Counted from the first letter of the stretch, positions 45,583 through 60,361 are shown. The stretch is 64,000 nt of DNA from Candidatus Poseidoniales archaeon (GCA_003602605.1 QQRW01000037.1:14718-78717); one strand, 5' to 3'. Notes: a model not told the origin generated them from the sequence alone. A program made the numbers and translations.

Positions 45583-46032
45583 TCAAACGATTGAGATGCT
45601 TCGAGATGCGATATTTAGCAGTACGAGTACACCGATGATTACCGCAGTCACTCGGAGTGCAGTATGTTCGTATTTTTCATCGTACGATTCACGCAGCAAA
45701 GCATAACCGATCAACCCTAATCCTAGGGACTGAAGAATGGTTCCGACTGAACCGATAACACGATTGAGGTCATTGTGCGCTTCTGTGTCTTCGGCTATTT
45801 TTTCGGTAACGCCTTCCGCTTCAAGGTCATAATCGACCACCGATGGCGGACCGAACATTTCGACAACTTCTACAAAAACAACCGATGCAAGTATCAGAAT
45901 AACGCCGAGCATCAACCATCGATGGAAGGAATAACTCAGCGGTGAGGTTTGAAATCCCGCAGCAGGTAGGTAAGGCGAGGGTGCAGGAGGGTTTTGGGCA
46001 GCGGATGCAGCAGGTGGTGGTGGGGCTTGCAT
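45583..46032 (-). CDS. Pro-rich N-terminus + 3-TM membrane protein, unknown function, directly downstream of arlJ
   Basis: ATG is at 46032 (MQAPPPPAASAAQNPPAPSPYL..). The TMs are WLMLGVILILASVVFVEVV, VIGSVGTILQSLGLGLIGYALL and VTAVIIGVLVLLNIA. It lies 39 nt after the arlJ stop on the same strand. Confidence 0.55.
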   Translation of the reverse strand: MQAPPPPAASAAQNPPAPSPYLPAAGFQTSPLSYSFHRWLMLGVILILASVVFVEVVEMFGPPSVVDYDLEAEGVTEKIAEDTEAHNDLNRVIGSVGTILQSLGLGLIGYALLRESYDEKYEHTALRVTAVIIGVLVLLNIASRSISIV

Positions 46033-46071
46033 GGCAACCAATCACTGACTGGGATTATGATTGTTGGGTCG

Positions 46072-47874
46072 TTAAACGCCAAACACAGCAGATGCAGCTT
46101 CCAATACCAACGAAGTGATGTATGAAGTGATGCCTGCAACCCAAAGCAGTTGAATTCCTTGACCCATAGCAGTTGTCCATATACCACCTCGCAACCTGTT
46201 CGATATGATTGAGACTGCAATAACTTGGAAGAGGATGAGAATTGAAACAATAATTTTGAACATTCGTATATTCTCCCCAACTCCTGAAGCATCTTCCATG
46301 ACTGGAAGGGCCAATCCTGCGCCGAATTCAGCCAAAGCACTGACATCCGTATTGGTGAAGTTTTCAGCCACACCTGCAATAGAATCGCCAAGCTTGAGGA
46401 CAATTGCAATGGTAACGTTGAGACTGGTCACCGAAGCAATAAGCAGACCGAGAGCGACACCACGCATGGTATTGGCCGAGAGAGATCTCCTTCTTCGCAA
46501 CGAAAGTAAACTTCCTACCGACCGAGAAACCATCTCAGCTGTGTCTGCTGGCTTACCTGAAGATTGTGAACCTTCGATGTAGATGCGTGTGTAACGTGAT
46601 ATCACAGCTGAATTGGTATCTGCGTTGAAGTAGTCCCAAGCTCGATCGGAATCAATACGAGTGGACAGTCGCTTTTCCAATCGATCGATAGAACGATCGA
46701 GCATACCGAAGTCAATCCCTCGCAAGGCTTTGATGGTGGCTGATGGTTCAGCTGAACGAGCCTGTGCAGTACCACCCAAGGCTCGAATAAAATCGGGATA
46801 AGTCTCGTCTCTTCGCAGAACTTGGCGTTCTTCTCTTCCGATCATAATTGCTGGAATAAGCATGGGTGAAAGGGGTGCAGCAATGAAAATGAGACCGTAT
46901 CGGTCCCATTGATTGGTAACTGCTTCCCAAGATGCTGCGAGTAGGATGACCATGATCACGGTTAGGAAACTGGTGAGAATACCCGCTCCGACAAGTGCTC
47001 GGAAGAAATTAAGTCGGAATGGTGTATCCATCTCATCACGAGCAAAAGTTGGGTCTTCGGGGACCGTCGCCCTAAACGCAAAGACTGCAGCGATTTGGAT
47101 TATAGTGAATACAAGCGATGCCAAAAGAATGAATCGCAATCGGCTGGCCACCATAATTGGTGTATCGGTAGCTGAACCGACTTCGAACAGAACCAAATGG
47201 ATTCCAGCAATAACAAGACCGAACAATCCGGCTGAGACCAAAGAGACATAGATTTCTTTCATCGTATCGACTGATTCAAGACGAGTATCGTAGAGAGTCG
47301 TGTATTGTTCGGCAACCGTCTCTTGTTCAGAACGCATGAACTCGTCGATGGCTTGGCCTGCTTCGATGGAAAACGCCATTCGATCGAGGAAATCTGCCCA
47401 AAGCGGACTCGGGCTTTGTTGTGCCACAATACGAGATGCCTCTGGAAGGGATGTGTGCCATTTGTCAACAAGTGTTTCAATTCGTTTGACCTCATTCGCC
47501 AACTCACCGTAATCACTCATTTGTTTGAGAATATCGAAAATGGATTGAGCACCTACTTCGCCAAGAGATAAAATACCCATTCGAGTAATGAACATGTGCA
47601 TCTCTTTCTCAATCATGGTTGCCGACCGTTGAACATCGAGCAATGGATACGCAGCTGCCGCACCTCCTGCCAAGATGGGTAAAAGGATAATCAGAAGAAT
47701 ACCAGCTGCACCTGAGAACAGTGCACCTTCAGCGAGGCCACCAGTGAGGAAAATGAGAAGTAAAGAAAACAGGAATCCTACGATTGCAGCGCCACCGACA
47801 TAAAAAAGGAGAAATTGCCCAACTGGAATCTCAACGCGACGCAAGGCGATTTGCCAGTAAGACATTCGCTGCAT
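46072..47874 (-). CDS. arlJ: Archaellum assembly membrane platform protein ArlJ (FlaJ)
   Basis: A 600-aa polytopic membrane protein with two cytoplasmic soluble segments (GspF/TadC-like layout). It lies immediately downstream of arlI, in the canonical position. Confidence 0.8.
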   Translation of the reverse strand: MQRMSYWQIALRRVEIPVGQFLLFYVGGAAIVGFLFSLLLIFLTGGLAEGALFSGAAGILLIILLPILAGGAAAAYPLLDVQRSATMIEKEMHMFITRMGILSLGEVGAQSIFDILKQMSDYGELANEVKRIETLVDKWHTSLPEASRIVAQQSPSPLWADFLDRMAFSIEAGQAIDEFMRSEQETVAEQYTTLYDTRLESVDTMKEIYVSLVSAGLFGLVIAGIHLVLFEVGSATDTPIMVASRLRFILLASLVFTIIQIAAVFAFRATVPEDPTFARDEMDTPFRLNFFRALVGAGILTSFLTVIMVILLAASWEAVTNQWDRYGLIFIAAPLSPMLIPAIMIGREERQVLRRDETYPDFIRALGGTAQARSAEPSATIKALRGIDFGMLDRSIDRLEKRLSTRIDSDRAWDYFNADTNSAVISRYTRIYIEGSQSSGKPADTAEMVSRSVGSLLSLRRRRSLSANTMRGVALGLLIASVTSLNVTIAIVLKLGDSIAGVAENFTNTDVSALAEFGAGLALPVMEDASGVGENIRMFKIIVSILILFQVIAVSIISNRLRGGIWTTAMGQGIQLLWVAGITSYITSLVLEAASAVFGV

Positions 47875-47885
47875 TCGACATCACC

Positions 47886-49607
47886 TCACGTATGGTTTAC
47901 TCCAGTCCATGTATCCACGGCTTTATCGAAGTGTTCCCATCCGTTGTTGTAATAGATGCCGATCAAGTCGAAAACATCGTCATAGTGGGTTAATTCTCTC
48001 TCCACCATTCGGTCAAGTGCAGCGGCCCTCCTCAGCATTTCATCGTAAATATCACGCTTATTGGAGAATCCGGCCATCGCTGCAATCTTGTTTTCCAACA
48101 AATGGCTTTGGAACATTCCACGGAAATAGTGCTTATCTTTGACAGGGTCCCATTCGAACATTCCACGAGTGAGTACTCCGTCGCTGTGCTTGTTGTATCC
48201 GATAACTTCGTCGATTCCTGTTACACGTCGAGCAATTCCGCCACCGGGTGCTTCAACCACTTCTTGGAAAATTGCGAAATTCAAGTTGTCAAAAAAGCGA
48301 ATTGGAACATTAATTGGGTCACCCGTAAATCTTTGAATCATTTTAACGATGGACGATGCGTGGAATGTAGCAATAACCGGGTGACCAGTTTGCATAGCCT
48401 GAAATGCAGTAGCCCCTTCAATACCGCGAATTTCACCGATGATAATGTAGCGAGGACGGCTACGAAGAGCTGCCTTAAGCAAGTCGAACATCTCGACCCG
48501 AGATTCTTCGTTCTTCGAGGAACGAGTAACGAGCCGCTGCCAAATCTTGTGGCGCACCTTCACTTCCGGGGTATCCTCCGCTGAGTAAATCTTAACGTTG
48601 TGGTCAATGAACGGCAAGATAGCATTGAGTGTCGTGGTTTTACCCGATGCAGTTTCTCCAGAAACAAGAACGGACATACCGTATTCAAGGCAAATCCAAA
48701 TGTAAGCAGCAACCTGTGACGAAATTGTGCCCCAAGCAATGAGTTGCGTAATCGAGATGGTTTCCTCTGCGAATTTACGGATGGTAAACGACGGTCCAAG
48801 CATTGAAACGTCGTCTGAGAAAATAATGTTGATACGTGAACCATCGAGCAGTGCACCGTCAATAATCGGTTTATTGTCAGAAACTGGTCGTCCAATTCGC
48901 TCTGACATTGCTCGTAAGAAGCGCGAAAGGAGTTCTCTATCACGGAACCGAATGTTGGATGTAACCATTCCAAACACTTTGTGGTCCATATGTACGTGTT
49001 TCAATCCTATCGAGTGAATATCTTCCAGCATTTCATCGGAGAGAAGTGGCTCCAGTGGACCGTTACGAATTAAGTCCCGAACAACAATGTAGCGTAGTCG
49101 TTCTCTCTGGGCTTCAGTGACAATAAGACGCTTGTCGTCCATACCCAACATTTCCCAGAAGCGCCCTTGACGGCGTACGTTCGTGAGTGCTTCAGTATCG
49201 AGGAGTGTGTAACGCTCAATCATCTGTGAGAGAATGTTTTCAAATTCGTCATCCGTGGTGAATGATGGCGCTGTTGGAGCCTCTTGCAGAAGTGTTTCTA
49301 TGAGACCGCGACGGATATTTTCCTCTTCTTCAGAAAGTTGAGGTTCGAGGCCAAACCAAAGAATCTGTCCTCCCCCCTCTTCATCAGCCGGAGGTTCGTA
49401 AATGTGAACAAAAATTGGTTCTTTTGTAATGTAAATGAGGTTGTAAGGTCTTTCTTTCTTTGCGTCACGATCCAACTCACCGTAGTAGATAGGACGTGAA
49501 CCATGGCTCGATTCGAAATCTCGAACCCATTCTGCGACGTGCGGGTGCGCACTCATGACCGAGTTGAGGTCACCTTTGGCAAATCGGGGCTCATCTTCGA
49601 CCATCAT
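47886..49607 (-). CDS. arlI: Archaellum motor/assembly ATPase ArlI (FlaI)
   Basis: Walker A is VSGETASGKTTTLNAIL, Walker B is YIIIGEIRG, and the His box is TGHPVIATFHA. At 573 aa, the size does not suggest an intein. Confidence 0.95.
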   Translation of the reverse strand: MMVEDEPRFAKGDLNSVMSAHPHVAEWVRDFESSHGSRPIYYGELDRDAKKERPYNLIYITKEPIFVHIYEPPADEEGGGQILWFGLEPQLSEEEENIRRGLIETLLQEAPTAPSFTTDDEFENILSQMIERYTLLDTEALTNVRRQGRFWEMLGMDDKRLIVTEAQRERLRYIVVRDLIRNGPLEPLLSDEMLEDIHSIGLKHVHMDHKVFGMVTSNIRFRDRELLSRFLRAMSERIGRPVSDNKPIIDGALLDGSRINIIFSDDVSMLGPSFTIRKFAEETISITQLIAWGTISSQVAAYIWICLEYGMSVLVSGETASGKTTTLNAILPFIDHNVKIYSAEDTPEVKVRHKIWQRLVTRSSKNEESRVEMFDLLKAALRSRPRYIIIGEIRGIEGATAFQAMQTGHPVIATFHASSIVKMIQRFTGDPINVPIRFFDNLNFAIFQEVVEAPGGGIARRVTGIDEVIGYNKHSDGVLTRGMFEWDPVKDKHYFRGMFQSHLLENKIAAMAGFSNKRDIYDEMLRRAAALDRMVERELTHYDDVFDLIGIYYNNGWEHFDKAVDTWTGVNHT

Positions 49608-49616
49608 AACACCTCA

Positions 49617-50357
49617 TCAGCTAACCGCCGTAATATCAACGATGAAGCCCATTCCAGGCTCGACACGCCATCCAATGGATGTTTGAATAGGACCAGCAGC
49701 TCGCAAGAAACGTGTGATGACGATGTTGCGCTTAATCTCGCCACCAATCATTGCCGTTTGCAAATCAAGAACGACTTCAGCGGATGCACGTAATGTGTGC
49801 ATGAGTTTGTGGTCCATTTCTTCAGGATCCACACAAAGCATCAACGAACGACCCTGTGAACACACTTGGCGTAATCGTTGCATGAGTTGGAATCGACTCG
49901 TATCATTAAGATCACTCGGCATAATCGAACTGGCAGAATCAATGATGACGACATCTGCGAGTTCAATGGCTTCGGATTGAAGAACTTCTTCGAGTCCGAC
50001 GTTCGGCAATGATTCTGCGATGGTTCCAAATCGGCTGAACACCAAGAGGCGTCCTTCTCGGATGGCGTCAGTGACTCCATAACCAAGTGATTCCATTTGC
50101 TCTACCCATCCGCGAGTTGTCAATTCAGTCGTGATGACAAGAACTTTGACACCATTTTCAGCAAGCCCGTAAGCTAGACGTTGGGAAATGAGGGATTTTC
50201 CACCACCTACTGTACCCTGTAGCACGTACAGAGAGCGATTCGGCATTCGGAGTCCCATCGAGTCGGCAAGAGAGTCCGTTTCCAGTTCGTATGGGAATCC
50301 GTCTTCCTTAGGCTTGTGAGCCGTGGTGAAAGGGTCTTCCTTGACATGTTCATCCAT
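49617..50357 (-). CDS. arlH: Archaellum protein ArlH (FlaH), RecA/KaiC-like ATP-binding protein
   Basis: Walker A is GTVGGGKSLISQRLAYGLAENG, and the layout is KaiC-like. ATG at 50357 overlaps the arlG stop by 8 nt (the track start is GTG 50387). Confidence 0.85.
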   Translation of the reverse strand: MDEHVKEDPFTTAHKPKEDGFPYELETDSLADSMGLRMPNRSLYVLQGTVGGGKSLISQRLAYGLAENGVKVLVITTELTTRGWVEQMESLGYGVTDAIREGRLLVFSRFGTIAESLPNVGLEEVLQSEAIELADVVIIDSASSIMPSDLNDTSRFQLMQRLRQVCSQGRSLMLCVDPEEMDHKLMHTLRASAEVVLDLQTAMIGGEIKRNIVITRFLRAAGPIQTSIGWRVEPGMGFIVDITAVS

Positions 50358-50856
50358 TAATGCGCACCTCTTGATTGAAACTTGCACTGGAAGAAATTCC
50401 GGAGACGAATTCTGAGGCCACAGTCACGAATATACTAATGTCGGTGTTGTCGGTATACGAATTGAACGTGTTGTTCGATACAGTCACTTCAAGCAAGACA
50501 TTGGGATTCCAAACCGTAGGCGTGGGAGTTCCCAAAAACGAGGTAGTTACACCCACAGCGGGAACTGAGAGGCCATCAATGAGGACTTGCATTTGGGTTT
50601 CATCCATTGGGTGTTCTCCGGTATTGAGGATGTAGAAGGTGATTTGATGGTCCGCTCCAGACCGGTCAATGTTGACGTTCATGGGGTCACCAGCAAAATC
50701 AATAGCAACTTCCTCTGAAAGTTGTAAGCCCCTTTGTTGTTTTTGAATGACTTGAGAAGTGGATGACCATTCTTGAATCAAAACTGCACTGGCGGAACTG
50801 GAGATCAGCAATGCGCTGATGAGCATGATGTATGTTGAAGCACCTCCGTCAGCCAT
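50350..50856 (-). CDS. arlG: ArlG (FlaG)-like archaellum protein
   Basis: It has an archaellin-like hydrophobic N-terminus (MADGGASTYIMLISALLISSSASAVLIQEW) and a beta-rich domain. Its position is between arlF and arlH. Confidence 0.65.
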   Translation of the reverse strand: MADGGASTYIMLISALLISSSASAVLIQEWSSTSQVIQKQQRGLQLSEEVAIDFAGDPMNVNIDRSGADHQITFYILNTGEHPMDETQMQVLIDGLSVPAVGVTTSFLGTPTPTVWNPNVLLEVTVSNNTFNSYTDNTDISIFVTVASEFVSGISSSASFNQEVRING

Positions 50857-50865
50857 AGTAACACC

Positions 50866-51570
50866 TCATGATGCCGACCGCACCATAGTCGTGGGGCCAA
50901 CTGTCATTGCCAAACGTTCGTATTCAGTATTCGTGCTGAGTTCATCGTTCCAAAACAACTGCAATGTTTCACCAGAATACCAATTGGTACTGGCCCCAGC
51001 GAGAGCTGATTGCAAAGAATCTTGTGATTCAGTTAGTGTCTCTGGCTCTTCGCCGTCATAGAACACCCAAACTTCATCGCTTTTCAGCGTATCAGGGCCT
51101 TGGTTGGTTATGTTTGCGTAAATGTACTGATGAAAGACAGGTGCATCAAATGTAGCAGGACTTGTCGGAGATTGAATCACATTCGACATATTGTATATAG
51201 TCCATGTTGGGGTTGCAGAACTTGGGCAGAAACCGTGGTTGGTGATAACCACGTTTCCTACATCAATCTCTCCACCTGTTGTTGTGAATGTAGCAGAAAA
51301 TCCGCCGCATTCATCCGAACCAACATTTGCTTTCAAAATCCCATCAAAGTATCCTGTTCCTTGATTACCTGCTGACATTGACACTTCGTGTATGACATGC
51401 TGAGCAACGTTCACATCGTCAATGGTAAAACTCGGGTCCGGAACTGAGGCGCTTTCGATTGCATCCAAACCGGTTGCAACCTGTGCGTCCAAAGCTGAAA
51501 TGGCCATTGAAAAGACCACAAGCATTGAGATCCCAACAATGAGACCTCCAATTCCGACCGAAGCGCCCAT
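50866..51570 (-). CDS. arlF: ArlF (FlaF)-like archaellum protein
   Basis: MGASVGIGGLIVGISMLVVFSMAISALDAQV resembles the FlaF N-terminus (MGFSVS..). ATG at 51570 lies 1 nt after the upstream stop. At 234 aa it is longer than typical FlaF. Confidence 0.6.
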   Translation of the reverse strand: MGASVGIGGLIVGISMLVVFSMAISALDAQVATGLDAIESASVPDPSFTIDDVNVAQHVIHEVSMSAGNQGTGYFDGILKANVGSDECGGFSATFTTTGGEIDVGNVVITNHGFCPSSATPTWTIYNMSNVIQSPTSPATFDAPVFHQYIYANITNQGPDTLKSDEVWVFYDGEEPETLTESQDSLQSALAGASTNWYSGETLQLFWNDELSTNTEYERLAMTVGPTTMVRSAS

Positions 51571-51571
51571 A

Positions 51572-52420
51572 TCAGAGTTCACCTCGAAGCGACTGAACTT
51601 GACGCCATGAACTAATCAATGACGAAAAGACCAGTAATTCTTTGTGCGACAAATGATCGTCTAATGCTGCTTCTGATTCACCAGGGGCTGCCAATTGAAC
51701 AATTGCAAGGACTGCACGTCCTTCCTGTTCTGACAACATACCCGAGGACATTGCTTTCTGAGCAAAACTAACCGCAGCCATTCCAGACATGCTGTCAAGA
51801 AGTAAGGCTGAAACGGTTGGCGCACCTACCTGATTCGCATTTGCAGTCGCACCCGTTGAAGGCGCATGCAAGAATGGATTCGCAGCGAGTGCTTGTGCTT
51901 CATACAATTCGACCAGTGGAGCTTCATCAACGCTTTTCAGACGGTCCATGCCTGCCGCAGAGATGACTTCGCCACTTGCAGTGACAATGGTGTCTCCGCT
52001 CATCATGGATTCTTCTCCGACAGATTCAGACGAAGCGGTTAGATTCCCTTCAGCATCCACAGTAGGGGCTGCTTGCGGGGTATCCAACCGAACTTCCACC
52101 ATCCTCAAAACATCCTCGACCATGTCGAGGCGACTGCTGATGAGGCGCTCCAATCCAGATGTGTCGACGGTTGTGCTCGCAGGAACAGGTGTCGAAGGGG
52201 CAAGAGTTGCCGCTACTGTTGGAACACTTCCAACGCTGTTCATACGAGCTCGTGTCGGACTAGGACTGATCGTCCATGCATCGTCTTCGCTGAGTTCTCC
52301 TTCTTCAGGAAGAGGGACTTGTTCAATGGCGATATTCGCCATAATTTTCAGTCGTTCCTCCGTAAGGTCTGCATCTGCATCTCTGTTTTTATCTGCGTTA
52401 CCGCTAAATGGCCATGCCAT
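51572..52420 (-). CDS. Unknown soluble acidic protein occupying the ArlC/D/E position of the archaellum operon
   Basis: ATG at 52420 is preceded by GGGAGGA. There is no TM helix. The sequence is Ala/Ser/Thr/Pro-rich and likely disordered in the middle, with a helical C-terminus. I cannot recognise the Arch_fla_DE signature by eye. Confidence 0.5.
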   Translation of the reverse strand: MAWPFSGNADKNRDADADLTEERLKIMANIAIEQVPLPEEGELSEDDAWTISPSPTRARMNSVGSVPTVAATLAPSTPVPASTTVDTSGLERLISSRLDMVEDVLRMVEVRLDTPQAAPTVDAEGNLTASSESVGEESMMSGDTIVTASGEVISAAGMDRLKSVDEAPLVELYEAQALAANPFLHAPSTGATANANQVGAPTVSALLLDSMSGMAAVSFAQKAMSSGMLSEQEGRAVLAIVQLAAPGESEAALDDHLSHKELLVFSSLISSWRQVQSLRGEL

Positions 52421-52475
52421 GATAAATCCTCCCAAGGGCTGTAATGCCTTTTGGCATTGGTGCCCTTAGATGCAA

Positions 52476-53132
52476 TCAGATGACAAGTGATCCAGCATCT
52501 GTGCTTCCGATGTCCAAGGTTTGGAAAGTTGTACCGCCGCTACCGACGTGAAGGTAAAGTTCAACCTTGTTGTCTCCGCCTGCAGCACTGCAATCTACAC
52601 CGTTTCCGTTGTCGTTAGCATCGATCCACATAGCGTATCCAGTCCCTGGATTCATGATTCCAGTTGCGGAATCTAAAGCATTGTTATCTGGCTCATCTTC
52701 GCCCATTTCAGCAACAGCACCGCCTGCGGTGAACGCAACTCCAGCACCATCAGGGTCTCCAATGAATCCTTCAACAACGCCGTCGTCACAGAAGAACTGG
52801 AACGAAATTTCGTCGAGAGGTGCAGGTTCGCTACCAGGAGCGAGACGAACATGGAACATGTATGCTTCAGTACTCGAGAAACCATTACCAACGTCATTTC
52901 CGGCATCGCCGTTAGCGACAAAACCAGCTGAAATGAGGACCTTACCTGCCATGTTGTCGGCAGTGTCATCACCAGTAGTTTGAGCATTTTGTTGGAGTTT
53001 TTCAGCAGTTTGAATGATGACTGCTGCAGCGACTGCAGCAACCAAAATCAAAGCAATAAAGACAATCATTGCACCGATACCGATAGCAGCGATTTTGTCT
53101 TCTTGAATATCGTTACGAGTATTTGGCTTCAT
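52476..53132 (-). CDS. arlB: Archaellin (ArlB/FlaB) paralog 2
   Basis: The N-terminus is ..EDKIAAIGIGAMIVFIALILVAAVAAAVIIQTAEKLQQNAQTTG (class III signal peptide + conserved archaellin helix). Its ATG overlaps the paralog-1 stop as ATGA. Confidence 0.9.
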   Translation of the reverse strand: MKPNTRNDIQEDKIAAIGIGAMIVFIALILVAAVAAAVIIQTAEKLQQNAQTTGDDTADNMAGKVLISAGFVANGDAGNDVGNGFSSTEAYMFHVRLAPGSEPAPLDEISFQFFCDDGVVEGFIGDPDGAGVAFTAGGAVAEMGEDEPDNNALDSATGIMNPGTGYAMWIDANDNGNGVDCSAAGGDNKVELYLHVGSGGTTFQTLDIGSTDAGSLVI

Positions 53133-53680
53133 ATTACTTTCGCCCCCGCTGTAATGTCAGCACCATAATTCAAGGTTTCATATGTGAAACCTCCAGCGCC
53201 AGATTGGATAATCAATGTGTGGTCTGCGTTTTCCGCAGGAGCACAGTCATTGAGTGTTGCAGTTTGAAGTGTAATGTCGTAGGTCGATCCTGGAACCAGA
53301 GTGGCACTCAGAGCAGCCACTCCAACGAGGCTAGAAGACGTAAAGTCTCCAGCATCTACACCAGCAGTACAGACAATGTTCCAGTCAATATTTGCTGGGT
53401 TGATTGCATCTGATCCTGGAGCAAGTTCGTAGGTAATGTACAATTCACCAGCATTAGGAATCATGACGTTCTTGATGACCACTTTCGAGGACAGCAAAGA
53501 AGTCGTTTCTTCACCGGTTGTTTGTGCATTCTGTTGCAACTTTTCAGCAGTCTGAATAATGACCGCTGCTGCAACCGCTGCAACCAGAATCAGTGCAATG
53601 AACACAATCATTGCACCAATACCAATAGCAGCGACATTATCGCTATTTTCGTTCTTATTTTCTTTCATATTTTTCACCAT
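53129..53680 (-). CDS. arlB: Archaellin (ArlB/FlaB) paralog 1
   Basis: ..SDNVAAIGIGAMIVFIALILVAAVAAAVIIQTAEKLQQNAQTTG is identical to paralog 2 over about 40 aa, with synonymous DNA differences. Alternative start ATG is at 53668 (see the promoter entry). Confidence 0.9.
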   Translation of the reverse strand: MVKNMKENKNENSDNVAAIGIGAMIVFIALILVAAVAAAVIIQTAEKLQQNAQTTGEETTSLLSSKVVIKNVMIPNAGELYITYELAPGSDAINPANIDWNIVCTAGVDAGDFTSSSLVGVAALSATLVPGSTYDITLQTATLNDCAPAENADHTLIIQSGAGGFTYETLNYGADITAGAKVI

Positions 53681-53682
53681 TT

Positions 53683-53695
53683 TTTAATTTTATAT
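53683..53695 (-). promoter_or_regulatory. Strong TATA-like element (ATATAAAATTAAA on minus strand) immediately upstream of the first archaellin
   Basis: The minus strand reads GGGGGATATAAAATTAAAAA-ATG. The element lies only 3-15 nt from ATG 53680 and about 20-28 nt from ATG 53668. Confidence 0.4.
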
Positions 53696-53723
53696 CCCCC
53701 ATGTAGGGTGGAAAAGGATTGAG

Positions 53724-54779
53724 TTAAGAAGAACCTCCAGAACTCATTGTGATTCGAAGTGGAATTCGAATAATTGCCACTTCGTCAGGAGCGAGGCGTT
53801 CCACAAATGGAACTGCATCAGCGGTGTAGCCTGGTGGGAACCAAGGCGAGAGAAGGATATCAGCAAGGGGCTCCATCGAGCGGTTTTGTGCACGTATGGT
53901 GACAAAAACTTCGCCAGTACGGATTTCATAACCTGTCGTAATCGCGAGTTTACGCGACAACGGTATTTCGTCTGCACCGTAACGCCGGTTGGCTGACACA
54001 TTGAATCGAACTGGTAAATTTCCTCCCGGAGCGATTGTTGGCAGGTCGACCGATGAAGGCGTAGATACCCAGCCCTCGGGCACCGGCGGCGAGAGGCGCA
54101 TTGGAGGCATTGCAACAGGCCCGTCATTGATAATTCGAACGACCAACACGCCTTCATCCCCTCCAGCAGGCCAGCGTGTTTCAAGGCCCATCCAGAAATG
54201 TCGGAACAAGAACGGATTAAGCGTCGATGTGTTTCCACCGATTAAATCGTCGACAAGGAATTCAACTTCACCTGCAGCTCCACCTACATCTCCGATTTCA
54301 GCTGCTCCTGTCGCACTCCTCAAACGAAGGAGAATCGTTTCAATATCGTTCTCGCTGATTTTCTTTTCATTGAGCAGACGGTGGAGCATAGCAATGTTTC
54401 TGCGTAAATACAGCACGTCTTCTTCGAGAACGGCAAGCGATGACTCCGCCTTGTCGACGCTAGACAGAGCACGGCGAAGTTTGTGCGTTTGCAAGAAACT
54501 CTTTGCTTCACTGATTTCAAGTTCAGTACCGGCAAGGGAATTTGTATCGTCCTGAGCAATTCCGAGAACCATCGTCTCTAAATCCCGGGGAAGCGGACGT
54601 TCTGGACTCGATGACGAAGGCATTGGTGGGAAAGGAGGTATCTCCTCTCCAGCATCAGCCTGTATGGCTGCGGATGCCTCATTCGAGGGTTCACTTGAGA
54701 CTTCATCCTCAAACTGAGGCATTTCATCAAGAGTTTTCTGCTCAAGTGAGGGGTCGACGAGTTCTTCATCAGGCATCAT
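53724..54779 (-). CDS. Cytosolic acidic/coiled-coil protein with C-terminal beta-sandwich (CARDB-like) domain, unknown function
   Basis: There is no TM helix or signal peptide. The layout is an acidic, probably disordered N-terminus, then heptad-like helices (LAVLEEDVLYLRRNIAMLHRLLNEKKISENDIETILLRL), then GVLVVRIINDGPVAMPPMRLSPPVPEGW..LPVRFNVSA. The start overlaps the upstream gene by 11 nt. Confidence 0.65.
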   Translation of the reverse strand: MMPDEELVDPSLEQKTLDEMPQFEDEVSSEPSNEASAAIQADAGEEIPPFPPMPSSSSPERPLPRDLETMVLGIAQDDTNSLAGTELEISEAKSFLQTHKLRRALSSVDKAESSLAVLEEDVLYLRRNIAMLHRLLNEKKISENDIETILLRLRSATGAAEIGDVGGAAGEVEFLVDDLIGGNTSTLNPFLFRHFWMGLETRWPAGGDEGVLVVRIINDGPVAMPPMRLSPPVPEGWVSTPSSVDLPTIAPGGNLPVRFNVSANRRYGADEIPLSRKLAITTGYEIRTGEVFVTIRAQNRSMEPLADILLSPWFPPGYTADAVPFVERLAPDEVAIIRIPLRITMSSGGSS

Positions 54780-57700
54780 CGTTCACCTCCTCGTTTGAAA
54801 ATAAGTTCTCGGGATTCAGGGCTTGTGAGGCTTCTGCAGACCCGAAGATGTCATCCAGATTGAGTCCATCTGCTGCGAGTTCGTTGAACAACCGAGCTGG
54901 GTCGCTCAAATCACGCTCGATTCGAATGGCCTTTACCTCGATGTCGGTGAGGCGTCCGTAAAGTTCGCCGTACATGTTGTTCGCACGGTTGATCAGGAAC
55001 CAAACACCTGCCATCACTACGAAGACATAAGTCGCGATACTAACGACATTTGTCCGATCCTCGGTGAGCATTGGTGGAATTCCTAGAATAATGGCAAGCA
55101 TACCAAGTACCGGCATGCCAAGAATTGTGCGGAGTTGGCGGCGGCTACTGGCAAGTTCTTCGAAGTGGTCTGCATACAGTGTCGAAATGCCTCTTCGAGC
55201 GCGTTGGTAGTCTTCGTGCAGGAGGCGGAATTCGTCGGTGCTCTTCCACGTCATCCTCCATATCCACAATGCAGCAAGTGTGAGCACAACAAAGCCCCAC
55301 CAAGCGAATTGGAAGATATGGAAGGAGAAACCGAAACCAACAACACCTGCATAGATTGCCAAGAGTCGGAAATTATCGTTTTGTGATGTTAAGCGGAAGA
55401 GAATAATGGATACCAGCAGGCAGGTAACAGCTGCCACGAAACTGACAGAAACACCTGGCGACCATGAAATAACGTCCTCCTTCAATGTCATTTTATCGTT
55501 CAAAACAACATTGTTTTCCATGAACGAGGCGTTAAGCGATGCAACACATGATACTTCAGAGCGCTGAGACCACCAATCGATTGAATCAGCGGTGACGACC
55601 CATGTGAATGTTCGTTCTTGGGTCGCAAAGAAGAACGGAATCATCGAGTAGTTGAGCCCCGAAGCGACTGAACGATTCAACAATGCGGGAGTCTCAGAAG
55701 GTAAAGTTGAGACAGTGAGACCCTCACATTGCAGGTCAACGACCACATCAAGGGCCGTAGCAGAACCGACGTTTTGAACAACGACTGTAATCGTGCTTTG
55801 TGTACCTTCTTGGAATTGACCTTCATCTGAAGAGATACTCTTAATCATCGGATCGGCAAACACTGCCAATACAAGTGAGAACGTTTCCTCGTCGTAGACT
55901 GAGTAGCCGTTGTTTTCATCGGGGTGGTAGAGCCTGAATGTCAAATCCCAACCGTCACCGGGCAGAATAAATCCTTTCGTAGGAGTCTCTGCTTCAATCC
56001 GAATAGAGGAAGGATTCCATGCTTCAAGCTCAAGCAGACTGTATCTCGAGGTGGGGCCAAGTGAAGTCGCACCACATTCTTGGTCGAGATTTAGAGGATG
56101 GACATCTGAGGTCCCGTCAAATTTGTCAACAATAAGAGAGAAGTTCCAAGAATACTCAAACTCGGACAGGCCCATCGATTCGAGGTTCAACAGACGTTCA
56201 GCGTTACAAAGTTCAATCATGTAAGCCACTTCGCTGCCGTTCCCTGTTGGGATGTTTGTGTACGGGAGGAATACATCGACAAAGTCGCTGTTAATGTCAG
56301 GCTCGATGCCAATATCGCCCGTGGAAAAGAATCGAGACATTACGAGTTGTGTTGTGAACTGACCACTGCCTTCCACTTCAGTCTCTGTTGGGTCGAGGAA
56401 AAGGGTCAAATCTGCAGTCAATGAAAGAAGCGGCAAGTCGACGGTTCCAACCGCCGTGAACGAGTGTACAACAGGCGTGTTTATTGGCAGAACAATCAAT
56501 GACGGTTGAGTCACCATTTCCCAATCTGTAGAGAGATTGGTGAGGCCAGGGCGAGTAATTGCATATACGGCATTGACGGTGACATCCTTGTTGCCCGTGT
56601 TCAAAAGCGTGACTTCCCAAGTGCGAGTGGATTTTGGTTGGAACTCCATGACATCAGGCCAGTCAGAAGATTCAACAATAAACAGTGGCTGAATTAACAA
56701 CTGAACTGTGTGCGTACTGTAAACAATTCCAGTCGTAGAATTGACGGCAGTAATGGTCAGATTGTAGACTGAGCCTTGTACCAGTGTATCAGCACCACCA
56801 AGGCTTGGGATTGCAACGTTCACACTGTCTGAGTACGTTTGATCGATGGAAAGAACTTCGGTGAGTTCCGATTTTGAAAGTGTAATGTTGCCTTCAACAG
56901 CCAAAGTAACCTTGACTGTTTCCTGGAGGTTTCCGTTGTTGATTATGTCAAAATCGACTTGTTCCATTTGACCGGGAGTTACTGCCTTCTGTTCAGGAGC
57001 AGAAATTCCAATCGAATGGTTTTCAGTAATATTGGCGACAACATTCGAGGAAAGAAGAATTTGACCGTTGTTGGTTGAAACCCAAACTGTTGTCATGTAG
57101 AATCCGTCAGAGTCGGCATCACCGTTGGCATTCATTTCTATTCGGATGGTTTCTTCATATCCTGCTGCGATAAAAACACTCGAAGTTATCGGAGATACGA
57201 TGCTGAAATCCACATCACCTGCCAAGGAGTTATCCAACCAAATCTCGTAGTCTGCAGGCGCATTGCCAGTGTTTTTGATGACAATGGAAGTAAAGGTCGA
57301 ATCTGTTACATCGAGTTCAAGCGACTGATTCGTTGGAGTAAGGCTGCCGTTGAAAATCTGACCTACAACCACATAGAATACATGCTCGCTGCCAATCAAT
57401 AAACCTGAGACTGGATCCTCAATTCGAACCGTGATTGGCTGATTCAATCCAGCCGGCGCAAGTGGGTCAGTTCGAATGTTAAACGTCACGACTTGGATGT
57501 GTGCAGCGTTACCGGAGGAACCATCGAGCGTACCGTCAGCAATATCTGCAGTCAAATTGGAAATATTTTGGTCGTTATCGGAAAAGTTGGCAGTCCAATT
57601 TTCAGGGAGATTGTCTACGATTCGCAAGCGATATGACCCCACATCGTTGCCTGTGTTGGCAAAGCGCATAGGAATCGAACTGTCGACTCCAACCGGCACA

Positions 57701-59775
57701 TCGTAAGGGCCGTTATCTAAGAAATCACCATCGATGACTTGAGGAATGACGATTGTGTAATTTCGGGTAAGAGGAACTGCGTTCACACCACTACCGACCA
57801 ATGCTGCGCTTAGTGTAGGCGTGATGGTCAGTGAAGCTGCAAAGGTACCTGCGACAGGATATTGATTGGCTTGTGGGCCGATAATGTCCAAGGTCGTGTT
57901 CATACTGTCGCCGGGTTGTAGTCCGGAGTAGAGCGGGTTTGAAACAGAAACCGACCAGCGGTCGGCCTCTCCAAAACCACCCTCATTCAACGCAGTGAAG
58001 GACTTTGAAGTCGTAAGTGTAGCGTCCAAGGTCTCGGTTAACAACGTGGGAAGATTGTGGATGACGCGCAAATTCAAATCGATGTTTTGAACAAGTTGAG
58101 TGCCAGTGAGTGTTTGTTCGATTTCTTCGACAGAGAGGTATTGTGGTTCAGGGTCCAAGCCTGGGTCAACAACGATCACGGGTGACACTTTGATTGGAGC
58201 TGTGTCTTGAGAGGGTACGCCTCCACCTATTGGTTGGCATTGAATCCATACATCGAGTTCATCACCGGCCATATTGTATTCGCTGGTGACGATTGGGTTT
58301 TGGATTGCAGGAGCAGTAAGCGTCACGACAACTTGGGTTGTAGCGCCAGATGCAACAGGAGGTGTGATCGATGGGCTGACCTCCCAGGTCCAGTTGAGTG
58401 TTGCGACCGACAACCCGGTCGCCAAAGTGTAGGTCGTTGTGACACTTCCAGTGTTTGTAATTTGGGCAATATACTGCGCCTGACCACCTGGATTGATGGT
58501 CTTGATTGAAGAGTCTTCAATCAGCGTAACATCGCCTTTGAAGAAATCACCAACCATCACACGACCTACTCCCGAGATTTGGTAATTGTCGGGAGAGTTA
58601 ACAGAGGTGAATGTAATAGTAATCTTGTCCGTTTCCGAACGAACTGCGTTAGCGGGAACATTGACATCGAGAGTGACTAGGCGAATGGAGCCAGCGGGAA
58701 GCGTGGCGCCAAAAGAGGCGGAAGAAACATCAGCCCATGGTTTGTTTTGGGTGACCGAGATGGTGAAGAGGTCGGATTCCACACCGGTGTTTTTGACAAC
58801 GAATGTGATAGCAGTCGTATCACCCGGCTCGACAACAAGCGTGGCTGGTTCGATAACGACTGCATTGTAGTCAGAAAATTTCACCCATGATTCTCGAACA
58901 ATAACTGTTTCAGTCCATGAAGTACCGTCGAACTTGACCGATGCTGAGATATTCCAAACGCCCGTGAGTGCTGAGCCATCTACATCAGCGCTTAGAACGC
59001 CAGATTCTTGGAGAGTTGCTGATGAGGCAGGATATGAACCTGGTTGAAGTGTAACTGTGCCCGATGTGAAGGTGATCACCGTCGGAGTAGGCGTCGAGTT
59101 ATCGGTAAGGACGATTGTCATTGTAGCGGAGATTGGCTTGACTCCTGAGTTGGTAACCGATGTATTGAGGGTTGAGATGGCGTTTGGTAGTGCCATTCGG
59201 TTGGTGGTAGGTGAATCTGCGGGGAAAGTATTACCCATCACATCTCCAAGATGTTTGTTTTCTACAGAGAAAGCAAAGCCAACATCTTGAATATTGTTGA
59301 GCAAATCATTTCCTGTCTCTTTGGTGGAGACCAATTTTATCCTAAGTTCTTGCCCAGCACCGTTCGTTGCAATCCATGAGAATGATATCGGCGTGAGATC
59401 AACTTGCCCTGAAGCACCGCTCACGCTACCCATCGAGATGCTATCGACATCCGTGAATCCAAGAGATGGCGAGCCTTTGTGTTGCAAGACAATCCAAAGC
59501 TCGTCGTTTCCAGAACCGACCGCTGAAATGTTTGCGGTGACGATGTGTTCGCCAGGTTCAAGGAAAAGGCTTGAACCAATCACTGCGGAACCTGAATTAC
59601 TGAGTTGCAGTGGATTTCGGAAGTAAAAGTCGAGCGTTGCACGTCCGGAGGTAGACGATGAGGTGCTGGATTCCTCGGCATCAGCAAACGGCAGATACAT
59701 CGGCAACACAAACAGTGCAACAAGCAGTGCTGCCAGCAGAGATTGACGATTGGCATGTTCACGCAGGAGTGTCAC
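54769..59775 (-). CDS. Large (~1668 aa) surface protein of repeated CARDB/DUF11-like beta-sandwich domains with a C-terminal 5-TM module and acidic cytoplasmic tail
   Basis: The signal peptide follows GTG 59775 (..REHANRQSLLAALLVALFVLPMYLPFADA). Repeated xxNTGxxxxxY/F motifs are present (VVKNTGVESDLFTISV; QITNTGSVTTTYTL; VIKNTGNAPADYEIWL; IINNGNLQETVKVTL; LLNTGNKDVTVNAVY; VQNVGSATALDVVV). The C-terminal TMs are at about nt 54990-55450. The track ORF start (60120) overlaps the upstream gene and I rejected it. Confidence 0.8.
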   Translation of the reverse strand: MTLLREHANRQSLLAALLVALFVLPMYLPFADAEESSTSSSTSGRATLDFYFRNPLQLSNSGSAVIGSSLFLEPGEHIVTANISAVGSGNDELWIVLQHKGSPSLGFTDVDSISMGSVSGASGQVDLTPISFSWIATNGAGQELRIKLVSTKETGNDLLNNIQDVGFAFSVENKHLGDVMGNTFPADSPTTNRMALPNAISTLNTSVTNSGVKPISATMTIVLTDNSTPTPTVITFTSGTVTLQPGSYPASSATLQESGVLSADVDGSALTGVWNISASVKFDGTSWTETVIVRESWVKFSDYNAVVIEPATLVVEPGDTTAITFVVKNTGVESDLFTISVTQNKPWADVSSASFGATLPAGSIRLVTLDVNVPANAVRSETDKITITFTSVNSPDNYQISGVGRVMVGDFFKGDVTLIEDSSIKTINPGGQAQYIAQITNTGSVTTTYTLATGLSVATLNWTWEVSPSITPPVASGATTQVVVTLTAPAIQNPIVTSEYNMAGDELDVWIQCQPIGGGVPSQDTAPIKVSPVIVVDPGLDPEPQYLSVEEIEQTLTGTQLVQNIDLNLRVIHNLPTLLTETLDATLTTSKSFTALNEGGFGEADRWSVSVSNPLYSGLQPGDSMNTTLDIIGPQANQYPVAGTFAASLTITPTLSAALVGSGVNAVPLTRNYTIVIPQVIDGDFLDNGPYDVPVGVDSSIPMRFANTGNDVGSYRLRIVDNLPENWTANFSDNDQNISNLTADIADGTLDGSSGNAAHIQVVTFNIRTDPLAPAGLNQPITVRIEDPVSGLLIGSEHVFYVVVGQIFNGSLTPTNQSLELDVTDSTFTSIVIKNTGNAPADYEIWLDNSLAGDVDFSIVSPITSSVFIAAGYEETIRIEMNANGDADSDGFYMTTVWVSTNNGQILLSSNVVANITENHSIGISAPEQKAVTPGQMEQVDFDIINNGNLQETVKVTLAVEGNITLSKSELTEVLSIDQTYSDSVNVAIPSLGGADTLVQGSVYNLTITAVNSTTGIVYSTHTVQLLIQPLFIVESSDWPDVMEFQPKSTRTWEVTLLNTGNKDVTVNAVYAITRPGLTNLSTDWEMVTQPSLIVLPINTPVVHSFTAVGTVDLPLLSLTADLTLFLDPTETEVEGSGQFTTQLVMSRFFSTGDIGIEPDINSDFVDVFLPYTNIPTGNGSEVAYMIELCNAERLLNLESMGLSEFEYSWNFSLIVDKFDGTSDVHPLNLDQECGATSLGPTSRYSLLELEAWNPSSIRIEAETPTKGFILPGDGWDLTFRLYHPDENNGYSVYDEETFSLVLAVFADPMIKSISSDEGQFQEGTQSTITVVVQNVGSATALDVVVDLQCEGLTVSTLPSETPALLNRSVASGLNYSMIPFFFATQERTFTWVVTADSIDWWSQRSEVSCVASLNASFMENNVVLNDKMTLKEDVISWSPGVSVSFVAAVTCLLVSIILFRLTSQNDNFRLLAIYAGVVGFGFSFHIFQFAWWGFVVLTLAALWIWRMTWKSTDEFRLLHEDYQRARRGISTLYADHFEELASSRRQLRTILGMPVLGMLAIILGIPPMLTEDRTNVVSIATYVFVVMAGVWFLINRANNMYGELYGRLTDIEVKAIRIERDLSDPARLFNELAADGLNLDDIFGSAEASQALNPENLFSNEEVNDDA

Positions 59776-60190
59776 CCCCTGGAGAGTCGAAACGAGCGAT
59801 GGTGACCTTCTTTCCTTGACGGCGCCACTGCATAAGGAGTTGCTCAAGGAGGCGCTCATGGTCGATGTCTGAGATGCCAAGGCGGCGGCGTTCCTCCCAC
59901 AGAAGCATCTGCTCAGTCTTGGTAAGAAGGGCGTCTCTGAGATACAATTCCAGCGTACGGCGGTATGCATCACGGTCAGAAACTGCGTAAACAATCGTGT
60001 CTCCGGGAAGTTGATCCGCACGATTTTGAATGAGGTTGCCGAGGGTAAGAGCCTCGTCATATGTGATGTCTCGCTTATCCAAGTCGGTTTGAACTGCACT
60101 GGCAATGGTTTGCAAGTCAAACCGCGTGTTGGTACGCTGTATTCGTTTGGAATATCGGCGGCTTCTACGAGACAATCGGACCGCCACCAT
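59759..60190 (-). CDS. Small basic/helical protein (143 aa), unknown function
   Basis: ATG is at 60190 (MVAVRLSRRSRRYSKRIQRTNTR..), followed by helical repeats (YRRTLELYLRDALLTKTEQMLLWEERRRLGISDIDHERLLEQLL). Its 3' end overlaps the proposed GTG start of the next gene by 17 nt. Confidence 0.55.
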   Translation of the reverse strand: MVAVRLSRRSRRYSKRIQRTNTRFDLQTIASAVQTDLDKRDITYDEALTLGNLIQNRADQLPGDTIVYAVSDRDAYRRTLELYLRDALLTKTEQMLLWEERRRLGISDIDHERLLEQLLMQWRRQGKKVTIARFDSPGGDTPA

Positions 60191-60361
60191 GATTATCCTT
60201 GTGACCTGCCGGTTATTGAAAGAATCGGTCAGCACACCCTTGCCAACCCGATATGCGGTAAAATCTACCCGTATCGCATAAAAGACTCACTGAGGGCAAC
60301 TAATTGACATTTTGGCATTTGACATCAGCATGCCCCAGGACACGGAGAAAAGCAATGTTTC

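Follow-up and report, generated by a model that had tools for sequence, protein, structure and literature searches.

Introduction

Proteins that resemble those of the surface layer (S-layer) and are built from immunoglobulin (Ig)-like folds are recognised extras of archaellum and type IV pilus loci (PMC4858521; PMC13705601). In some Methanococcales and Thermococcales, S-layer-like multi-Ig proteins are encoded in archaellum loci, and a local modification or priming of the envelope for the filament has been proposed for them, while the function of such extra proteins is still regarded as an open question (PMC13705601). How the stator is held in archaea without an S-layer, such as the Thermoplasmatales, is likewise open (PMC12448462). 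In this work, we analysed a stretch of 64,000 nucleotides (nt) from a Candidatus Poseidoniales archaeon (GCA_003602605.1 QQRW01000037.1:14718-78717), in the following called the window, in which three genes termed P1, P2 and P3 stand directly upstream of an archaellum gene cluster. P2 encodes a giant predicted surface protein and P3 its predicted cytoplasmic partner, and we cautiously lean towards reading the two as a membrane-spanning, two-protein envelope accessory complex linked to the archaellum.

Homologue records of these genes are named 'Candidatus Poseidoniaceae archaeon' and others Poseidonia sp., which identifies the source as an uncultured Marine Group II (MGII) archaeon. In the surface ocean, MGII outnumber all other planktonic archaea, and the archaellum is among the traits by which their ecological clades differ (PMC6336850, PMC6461757). 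Conserved unannotated proteins in and around a 'putative MGII motility operon' were remarked upon by Tully (2019) and not analysed (PMC6336850). P1, P2 and P3 are not mentioned in an MGII metatranscriptome paper (PMC9723583), and a paper on the Chloroflexota archaellum has no bearing on them.

Gene Order and Co-occurrence Within the Poseidoniales

All three genes belong to a co-directional array on the minus strand (46072-60190) with the order P1-P2-P3-arlB1-arlB2-X-arlF-arlG-arlH-arlI-arlJ. A sequence-only reading of this DNA, which preceded our analysis, had placed three open reading frames (ORFs) on the archaellum strand, and this is borne out by their coordinates (59759-60190, 54769-59775 and 53724-54779). 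P1, P2 and P3 are genuine genes and not chance ORFs, because each of them has many conserved homologues. Scans with Pfam and NCBIfam returned generic Ig-like domains in P2 and P3 alone and no archaellum family in any of the three.

For the Poseidoniaceae, at least 80 loci exist, and the 80 listed were compared with 10-kb flanks each. Wherever the sequence was long enough, all 80 showed a divergent bcp (-), then P1-P2-P3-arlB-arlB-X-arlF-G-H-I-J and a small gene encoding three transmembrane helices. Five loci from five genomes of other Poseidoniales families or genera carried P2-P3 directly upstream of arlB as well. The complete order P1-P2-P3-arlB was kept in two of them (G039 and G045), P2-P3-arlB was found with P1 undetected in an archaellated genus (G059), and in a further genus (G052 and G057) a gene of 1050-1089 aa was inserted between P1 and P2. 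A sixth locus (G047) was uninformative, as its contig breaks off behind arlF.

Among 61 relatives, separate searches were made for P3, the P2 membrane module and ArlJ. P3 was present in 36 of the 37 genomes of the same genus (G000 included) and in G039, G045, G052, G057 and G059, and the distribution of the P2 membrane module was identical. The ArlJ set differed from the P3 set in four genomes, with G047 and G055 added and G008 and G057 lacking ArlJ. All exceptions in presence or absence coincided with contig ends: the contig of G047 ends after arlF, the matches in G055 and G057 touch contig starts, and in G008 and G032 the absent partner would lie past the end of the contig. Neither P3 nor the P2 membrane module was found in any archaellum-less genome of the order that was searched, the Thalassarchaeaceae included. 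The link to the archaellum, for which the sequence-only reading had suggested synteny and co-occurrence with arlB-J as a test, thus held in the 80 loci, in the five further loci and among the 61 relatives.

Distribution Across the Thermoplasmatota

The 80 loci listed in a search for related loci all belonged to close Poseidoniales. A profile search with P3 against 1.8 billion representative proteins reached distant relatives and gave 79 matches, mostly fragments, with few full-length distant members (E values of 1e-3 to 1e-5). Four distant full-length homologues and their relatives stem from 'Thermoplasmatota archaeon' assemblies. Their loci (L097, L099, L100 and L101) encode a CARDB-type protein of 1489-1686 aa, the P3 homologue, arlB, an ArlC/D/E fusion consisting of FlaC_arch and Arch_fla_DE, and arlF-G-H-I-J; no P1 was found upstream in these four. 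The P3 homologue overlaps the preceding large gene in three of the four, and a gap of 103 nt separates the two in L099. All large proteins follow the plan of P2: behind the signal peptide comes a long ectodomain, and five helices near the C-terminus lead into a cytoplasmic tail. In the combined P3 alignment, the invariant positions include the P of the NPF/PFP motif, N218, P234, N299, P312 and P315.

For a view of the whole phylum, 301 genomes were drawn evenly and a strong P3-family match was defined by an E value below 1e-15. Such matches occurred in 92 of the 171 archaellin-positive genomes and in none of the 130 archaellin-negative ones. In families f11, f19 (four genera), f21, f45 and f46, as well as in the four metagenomic Thermoplasmatota loci, a P3 homologue immediately precedes arlB, and the flanking genes differ. 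The P2-P3 pair heads the operon in at least eight Thermoplasmatota families. The pair was not found in the cultured-type Thermoplasmatales-like families of the sample. As many archaellated families lack it, the pair is not needed for archaella in general.

P3 relatives also occur in other settings. In family f7, one locus (L107; G063:C11:133500-153400; 2890-14237, minus strand) holds the pair followed by four coiled-coil proteins and a STAND-TPR NTPase; three of the four coiled-coil proteins end in CXXC zinc-ribbon motifs, and the P3-like protein carries a zinc ribbon, too. L102, L103, L108 and L109 contain stand-alone genes whose products (360-430 aa) match P3 in its double beta-sandwich core only and start close to a P(F/L)PLL motif. 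The stand-alone core proteins of f8, f23, f25 and f31 were all encoded in archaellated genomes.

Such gene neighbourhoods would suit a general connector, tying the cell surface to a scaffold in the cytoplasm, that was recruited beside the archaellum genes in some lineages, for instance to fix motors to a polar structure. The coiled-coil proteins, three of them zinc-ribbon-ended, and the NTPase behind the f7 pair fit this idea, as do the stand-alone homologues of the P3 core. However, only one such locus was examined, and every sample genome with a strong P3-family match is archaellated, which makes a general connector quite unlikely in our view.

The Giant Surface Protein P2

P2 (54769-59775, minus strand) comprises 1668 aa when started at the GTG at 59775. 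Its first 33 residues form a Sec-type signal peptide (59677..59775, minus strand; ..LLAALLVALFVLPMYLPFADA) that ends in ..LPFADA and precedes an ectodomain that spans about 1400 aa and consists of Ig-like beta-sandwiches of the NEW3/CARDB/Ig_VWA7 type (55453..59676, minus strand). The ectodomain is acidic (isoelectric point (pI) of 4.05) and contains 24 N-X-S/T sequons. In the Pfam scan, NEW3 (PF10633) reached 30.0 bits against a cut-off of 24.4, and Ig_VWA7, FixG_C and CARDB (PF07705) scored weaker. A membrane module of five helices follows (aa 1442-1595; 54991..55452, minus strand), defined by hydropathy, the AlphaFold model and the alignment. Between helices 3 and 4 lies a basic, conserved cytoplasmic loop (W.S..E...IH.DYQRAR.G) with eight K+R in 40 residues. 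The cytoplasmic tail (aa 1596-1668; 54772..54990, minus strand) consists of a conserved helix, YG.LYGRLTDIEVKA.RIERDL.DPARL, and the acidic end ..EEVNDDA.

Hydropathy and the AlphaFold model both gave one N-terminal and five C-terminal hydrophobic segments. This arrangement suggests that the N-terminus lies outside and that the short basic loop, the loop between helices 3 and 4 and the C-terminal tail lie inside. The model of the C-terminal 369 residues (mean predicted local distance difference test (pLDDT) of 74) shows one CARDB-like sandwich, then helices fitting five membrane passes, with long cytoplasmic extensions after helices 3 and 5 and a disordered end of about 25 residues. The huge CARDB-like ectodomain joined to a five-helix module, which had been read from the sequence beforehand, is hence in agreement with the NEW3 match above the cut-off, with hydropathy and with the model.

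A Foldseek search of this model against the PDB matched the Ig domain only, with the ectodomain of Fsx1 (7p4l) and a Pyrococcus CARDB domain (3idu) as the best hits; the five-helix part had no match, and a PDB sequence search with P2 gave no match of use. As a separate observation, the similarity of the membrane-proximal Ig-like domain (aa 1300-1440; 55040-55878, minus strand) to the archaeal fusexin Fsx1 had an E value of 5.5e-8, with 21% identity and a root-mean-square deviation of 2.9 A over 139 columns; it covers one domain only and outranks the Pyrococcus CARDB.

Among nine Poseidoniaceae orthologues, the most conserved region of P2 was the cytoplasmic loop together with helices 4-5 and the tail (63% identity), and the other 100-residue bins reached 39-53%. 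All but four of the 120 Poseidoniaceae homologues listed had a length of 1616-1732 aa. These data bear on the question of whether P2, as an adhesin or surface-contact protein, is co-regulated with the archaellum and has P3 as its cytoplasmic adaptor; P2 and the archaellum would then share an operon because both serve particle attachment, with P2 lying outside the archaellar machine. The length of the ectodomain and its identity of 39-53% are kept throughout, so that it is neither hypervariable nor variable in repeat number. Moreover, no recognisable binding domain was found in P2, and a passive adhesin would not usually have an anchor of five helices, conserved elements in the cytoplasm and a coupled partner. 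On the other hand, a long Ig-like ectodomain is typical of adhesins, Rinke et al. argue for an adhesion role of MGII archaella (PMC6461757), adhesins are frequent extras of archaeal type IV pilus loci (PMC4858521), and the f7 pair shows that P2-P3 can stand apart from archaellum genes. Taken together, we regard an adhesin as unlikely.

The sequence-only reading had also offered the alternative that P2 is just the organism's S-layer protein, which would then lie beside the archaellum genes by chance. Like many archaeal S-layer proteins, P2 is indeed a large, acidic and presumably glycosylated protein of Ig-like domains. Nevertheless, none of the archaellum-less Thalassarchaeaceae genomes searched contains P3 or the P2 module, and several families with differing flanking genes share the placement at the operon's head. 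In addition, P2 is anchored by five helices, shows a conserved loop and tail to the cytoplasm, and has a dedicated, apparently translationally coupled cytoplasmic partner. An S-layer protein is consequently disfavoured and appears extremely unlikely.

P3, a Predicted Cytoplasmic Protein

P3 (53724..54779, minus strand) has 351 aa and is predicted to be cytoplasmic on the basis of the ORF, the model and the alignments. It is composed of an acidic disordered part (residues 1-62), a five-helix bundle (63-180), an NPF motif (188-190) and two beta-sandwiches (195-343), and no hydrophobic segment was detected. The AlphaFold model was calculated from an alignment of 26 sequences and had a mean pLDDT of 72. 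Foldseek against the PDB returned generic tandem Ig-like structures only (HYDIN-like ciliary, transglutaminase C-terminal, adaptin appendage, TRAP), and PDB sequence and profile searches with P3, P1 and P2 yielded a NEW3-like domain and coiled-coil noise only. Identity ranged from 61 to 92% among the 120 matches listed, all of which were of Poseidoniales type.

The description of P3 as a protein without transmembrane segments and with an acidic tail, helices and a beta-sandwich was accurate. Its claimed likeness to the P2 repeats stood at the level of the Pfam family, since NEW3 scored 23.3 bits on P3, slightly below the cut-off of 24.4, and matched 12 of 20 P3-family members; it did not stand by BLASTP. 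A derivation of the P3 beta-sandwich from the P2 repeats was rejected at a BLASTP E value above 1.

Gene Junctions and Transcription Signals

P2 and P3 overlap by exactly 11 nt, with the ATG of P3 at 54779-54777 and the TGA of P2 at 54771-54769 (junction GAGGAGGTGAACGATGATGCCTGA). The Shine-Dalgarno sequence of P3, GGAGGTG (54784..54790, minus strand), is located within the P2 codons E-E-V, and an ..EEV.. motif was present at the P2 C-terminus in most Poseidoniales orthologues compared. The overlap had been reported at this length before, together with the idea of translational coupling; the exact overlap and the Shine-Dalgarno sequence inside P2 agree with both, and the EEV motif fits a conserved coupling signal. 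The 17-nt overlap claimed for P1 and P2 holds if P2 starts at GTG 59775. This start is plausible, as it gives a normal signal peptide and as the resulting length of 1668 aa equals the gene call of a homologue that shares 96% identity in the part searched (residues 1400-1668).

Downstream of P3, the gap to the archaellin gene had been given as 43 nt, which is correct for the first ATG of arlB1 (53680), though the real gap is likely 55 nt. The ATG at 53680 is often missing in relatives; conserved instead are a GGTGA (53674-53678), a spacer of 5-8 nt and the ATG at 53668. Because GGTGA and the second ATG are conserved and the first ATG is not, arlB1 probably starts at 53668 behind a Shine-Dalgarno sequence and is not leaderless, which results in the P3-arlB gap of 55 nt.

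Between the P3 stop and arlB lies a hairpin, UUCCACCC..loop..GGGGGA (53695..53713, minus strand), that starts 11 nt past the P3 stop. It was recognisable in the 75 distinct intergenic sequences inspected. Of these, 56 were folded with ViennaRNA, which predicted it in nearly every one; ten sequences with a variant 5' anchor did not enter the folding. The inner stem showed compensatory variants (CCCGC/GCGGG, CCCTC/GAGGG, CCCAC/GTGGG, GCCC/GGGC and ACCC/GGGT), and several variants allow G.U pairing on the sense strand only. In an RNAalifold consensus of 24 representatives, two of the four base pairs carried compensatory changes. The hairpin is followed by GGACGAG or an A-rich tract.

As the hairpin begins only 11 nt after the P3 stop, no space is left upstream of it for a separate promoter. 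With a sense-strand hairpin near the P3 stop and the conserved GGTGA behind it, transcription probably runs across the P3-arlB junction, either by read-through or from a promoter inside P3; for the abundant archaellin mRNA, this hairpin could serve in processing or stabilisation. A scan for promoters and terminators of the bacterial type gave counts near those of shuffled controls and was uninformative, since the model is bacterial and the host archaeal.

P1 and Its Upstream Region

P1 (59759..60190, minus strand, ATG at 60190) is a helical, cytoplasmic protein of 143 aa with a pI of 9.8 and nine K+R among residues 1-30, including an N-terminal segment RLSRRSRRY.KRIQR. The earlier characterisation as a basic, helical small protein was right. 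An alignment of 10 orthologues contained 41 invariant columns, and searches of Pfam, NCBIfam and the PDB gave no family. The proposed three-gene module was sustained for the P2-P3 pair and not for P1, which is confined to the Poseidoniales, is not universal there, is missing in the archaellated genus of G059 and is displaced from P2 by the extra gene in another. This extra gene (L014:9078-12347; L016:9070-12222, minus strand) belongs to one Thalassarchaeaceae genus and had no Pfam match. Residues 70-117 of P1 (..LLTKTEQMLLWEERRRLGISD..; 59840-59980, minus strand) are weakly similar to part of a protein with roughly 350 aa (contig C33:42957-44036), in which the similar segment is flanked by zinc-ribbon motifs; that protein occurs in nearly all relatives, archaellum-less ones included.

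Upstream of P1, a TATA-like box, TTTCAATAA (60213..60221, minus strand), is centred 27 nt before the ATG. It is part of a 23-nt motif, ACCGATTCTTTCAATAACCGGC (60208-60230), that was kept in all 12 Poseidoniaceae loci compared. The spacing between box and ATG fits the archaeal TATA box of a leaderless mRNA, and so the box is probably the promoter, with a B recognition element (BRE) and TATA box, of a leaderless P1 transcript. In the divergent region between bcp and P1, a second conserved motif, CTTTTATGC, was observed roughly 60 nt farther upstream.

Relation to the Cytoplasmic Ring Proteins

The sequence-only reading had considered the module as a substitute for the cytoplasmic ring formed by ArlC/D/E or ArlX. 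This has to be abandoned, as operons of sister lineages encode P2-P3 together with an ArlC/D/E fusion, and the pair is therefore not a replacement for ArlC/D/E. Neither FlaC_arch (PF05377) nor Arch_fla_DE (PF04659) matched P1, P2 or P3 at E values up to 0.1 or any of 20 P3-family members at E values up to 10, and a six-frame search showed Arch_fla_DE to be absent from the whole genome. Profiles of Arch_flagellin, ArlF and ArlG did not match P1, P2 or P3 either, nor were FlaF or FlaG structures returned by Foldseek against the PDB for the models of P3 and the P2 C-terminus.

P3 was rejected as an ArlC/D/E paralogue: hhalign aligned 82 helical columns ending at the NPF with 40% probability and an E value of 3e-4, a match that is suggestive and below the level reliable for helical sequence. 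As a paralogue of X, P3 was rejected as well, with hhalign aligning the NPF motif only.

X (51572..52420, minus strand) encodes an acidic, soluble protein of 282 aa between arlB2 and arlF. Its hhalign alignment with ArlC/D/E was limited to 'LYE/D......NPF', and X carries an LYE..NPFL motif. Because it holds the slot between arlB and arlF that ArlC/D/E occupies in sister lineages, X is a better candidate for a diverged ring protein than P3. Since the pair does not replace ArlC/D/E, attention for the ring role moves to X.

The weak alignment of the P3 helices with the coiled-coil and NPF region of ArlC/D/E fusions is also the point at which a sensor or brake has to be considered, i.e., an ectodomain that senses surface contact and a P3 that signals to the motor in lineages without chemotaxis genes. 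MGII archaea have no identifiable chemotaxis genes (PMC6461757), which would leave room for such a device. However, the sister lineages that carry the pair have ArlC/D/E as well, the Pfam and NCBIfam scans detected no signalling domain in P3 or elsewhere in the pair, and the hhalign match lies in a helical region below the reliable level. We thus judge a sensor very unlikely.

Proposed Role of the P2-P3 Pair

For the archaellum-linked envelope complex that we prefer, the following sequence of events can be outlined. P2 would be exported via Sec, display a glycosylated Ig-like ectodomain of about 1400 aa and be anchored by its five transmembrane helices, with the basic loop and the helical tail facing the cytoplasm. 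P3 would be made in step with P2 through translational coupling and remain in the cytoplasm, where it most likely docks onto the P2 loop and tail via its helical bundle or its two beta-sandwiches. The pair would represent the first cistrons of the archaellum cluster, probably with a promoter upstream of P1 and transcription continuing into arlB. P1 may act as a Poseidoniales-specific regulator or assembly factor of the P2-P3 module. The assembled complex would form a local, S-layer-like element of the envelope at the base of the archaellum and may give the ArlF/G stator a fixed point, let the filament pass through an opening or collar, or do both, with P3 as the tie to the cytoplasmic side. 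This anchoring role is what we infer from the arrangement of the two proteins.

A stricter version makes P2-P3 a new structural part of the archaellum itself in Poseidoniales and many other Thermoplasmatota, namely a membrane-anchored pseudo-S-layer collar that holds the ArlF/G stator, with P3 locking loop and tail to the motor or a polar scaffold. We consider this possible and put it forward only tentatively. If true, it would account for torque generation by the archaella of lineages that have no regular S-layer.

Several findings weigh against an archaellum-linked complex and temper our preference. Fold searches with the models of P3 and P2 gave generic Ig-like matches only, and neither these nor the profile searches pointed to a function. 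The association between P3 and archaellin is formally strong (Fisher's exact test, 8e-30), yet phylogeny is ignored in this test, and the joint loss with the archaellum could reflect single deletions of one contiguous block. Moreover, 79 archaellin-positive genomes lack the pair, among them families with the top Pfam archaellin scores. The pair of family f7 resides on a different contig than the archaellum genes, beside coiled-coil proteins, and P3 homologues reduced to the beta-sandwich core stand alone and away from the operon in f8, f17, f23, f25 and f31. Lastly, a TATA-like sequence, ATATAAAAT, is situated just before arlB in the window, so an independent archaellin promoter is possible.

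Neighbouring Genes

The remaining genes of the cluster, all on the minus strand, were assigned with Pfam and NCBIfam. The archaellins are encoded by arlB1 (53129..53668, with the first ATG at 53680; start taken from the comparison with relatives) and arlB2 (52476..53132). Downstream of X follow arlF (50866-51582), arlG (50350-50856), arlH (49617-50387), arlI (47886-49607) and arlJ (46072-47874). The small gene 3' of arlJ (45583-46041, minus strand) encodes a proline-rich protein with three transmembrane helices and was syntenic in most Poseidoniaceae loci on a tblastn map.

Comparison With Known Systems

The nearest described kind are the proteins of the arCOG05057 type (PMC13705601 and PMC4858521). 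Like them, P2 is large, secreted, built up from multiple Ig-like folds and encoded in an archaellum locus, and the likeness is drawn from folds and locus. Unlike them, P2 has five C-terminal transmembrane helices plus a conserved loop and tail on the cytoplasmic side, is always paired with an overlapping gene for the cytoplasmic P3, and heads the operon, in Thermoplasmatota. A type IV pilus system of Halobacteria (arCOG07564) similarly combines an S-layer-like surface protein with an intracellular coiled-coil protein; it serves another filament than the archaellum, and in the passage concerned (PMC4858521) beta-sandwiches are not described for its coiled-coil protein.

With respect to the core archaellum proteins, P3 resembles ArlX and ArlC/D/E in being cytoplasmic, partly helical and encoded in the archaellum operon, and it has the NPF motif after a helical stretch in common with the ArlC/D/E fusions. 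However, ArlC/D/E lie between arlB and arlF, whereas P3 is placed upstream of arlB and has neither FlaC_arch nor Arch_fla_DE. The small ArlX of the Thermoproteota combines a membrane helix at its N-terminus with a coiled coil, and its gene follows arlB, whereas P3 is encoded before arlB, lacks such a helix and contains two beta-sandwiches. As is proposed for P2, the beta-sandwich archaellum proteins ArlF and ArlG act at the envelope, but they are small, carry signal peptides of class III and have their own genes in this cluster, whereas the signal peptide of P2 is Sec-type.

Overall, P2-P3 is probably a previously undescribed accessory part of the archaellum apparatus. As a conserved, clearly bounded and membrane-spanning pair, it offers a candidate for both questions raised at the outset, the holding of the stator and the function of S-layer-like proteins in archaellum loci.

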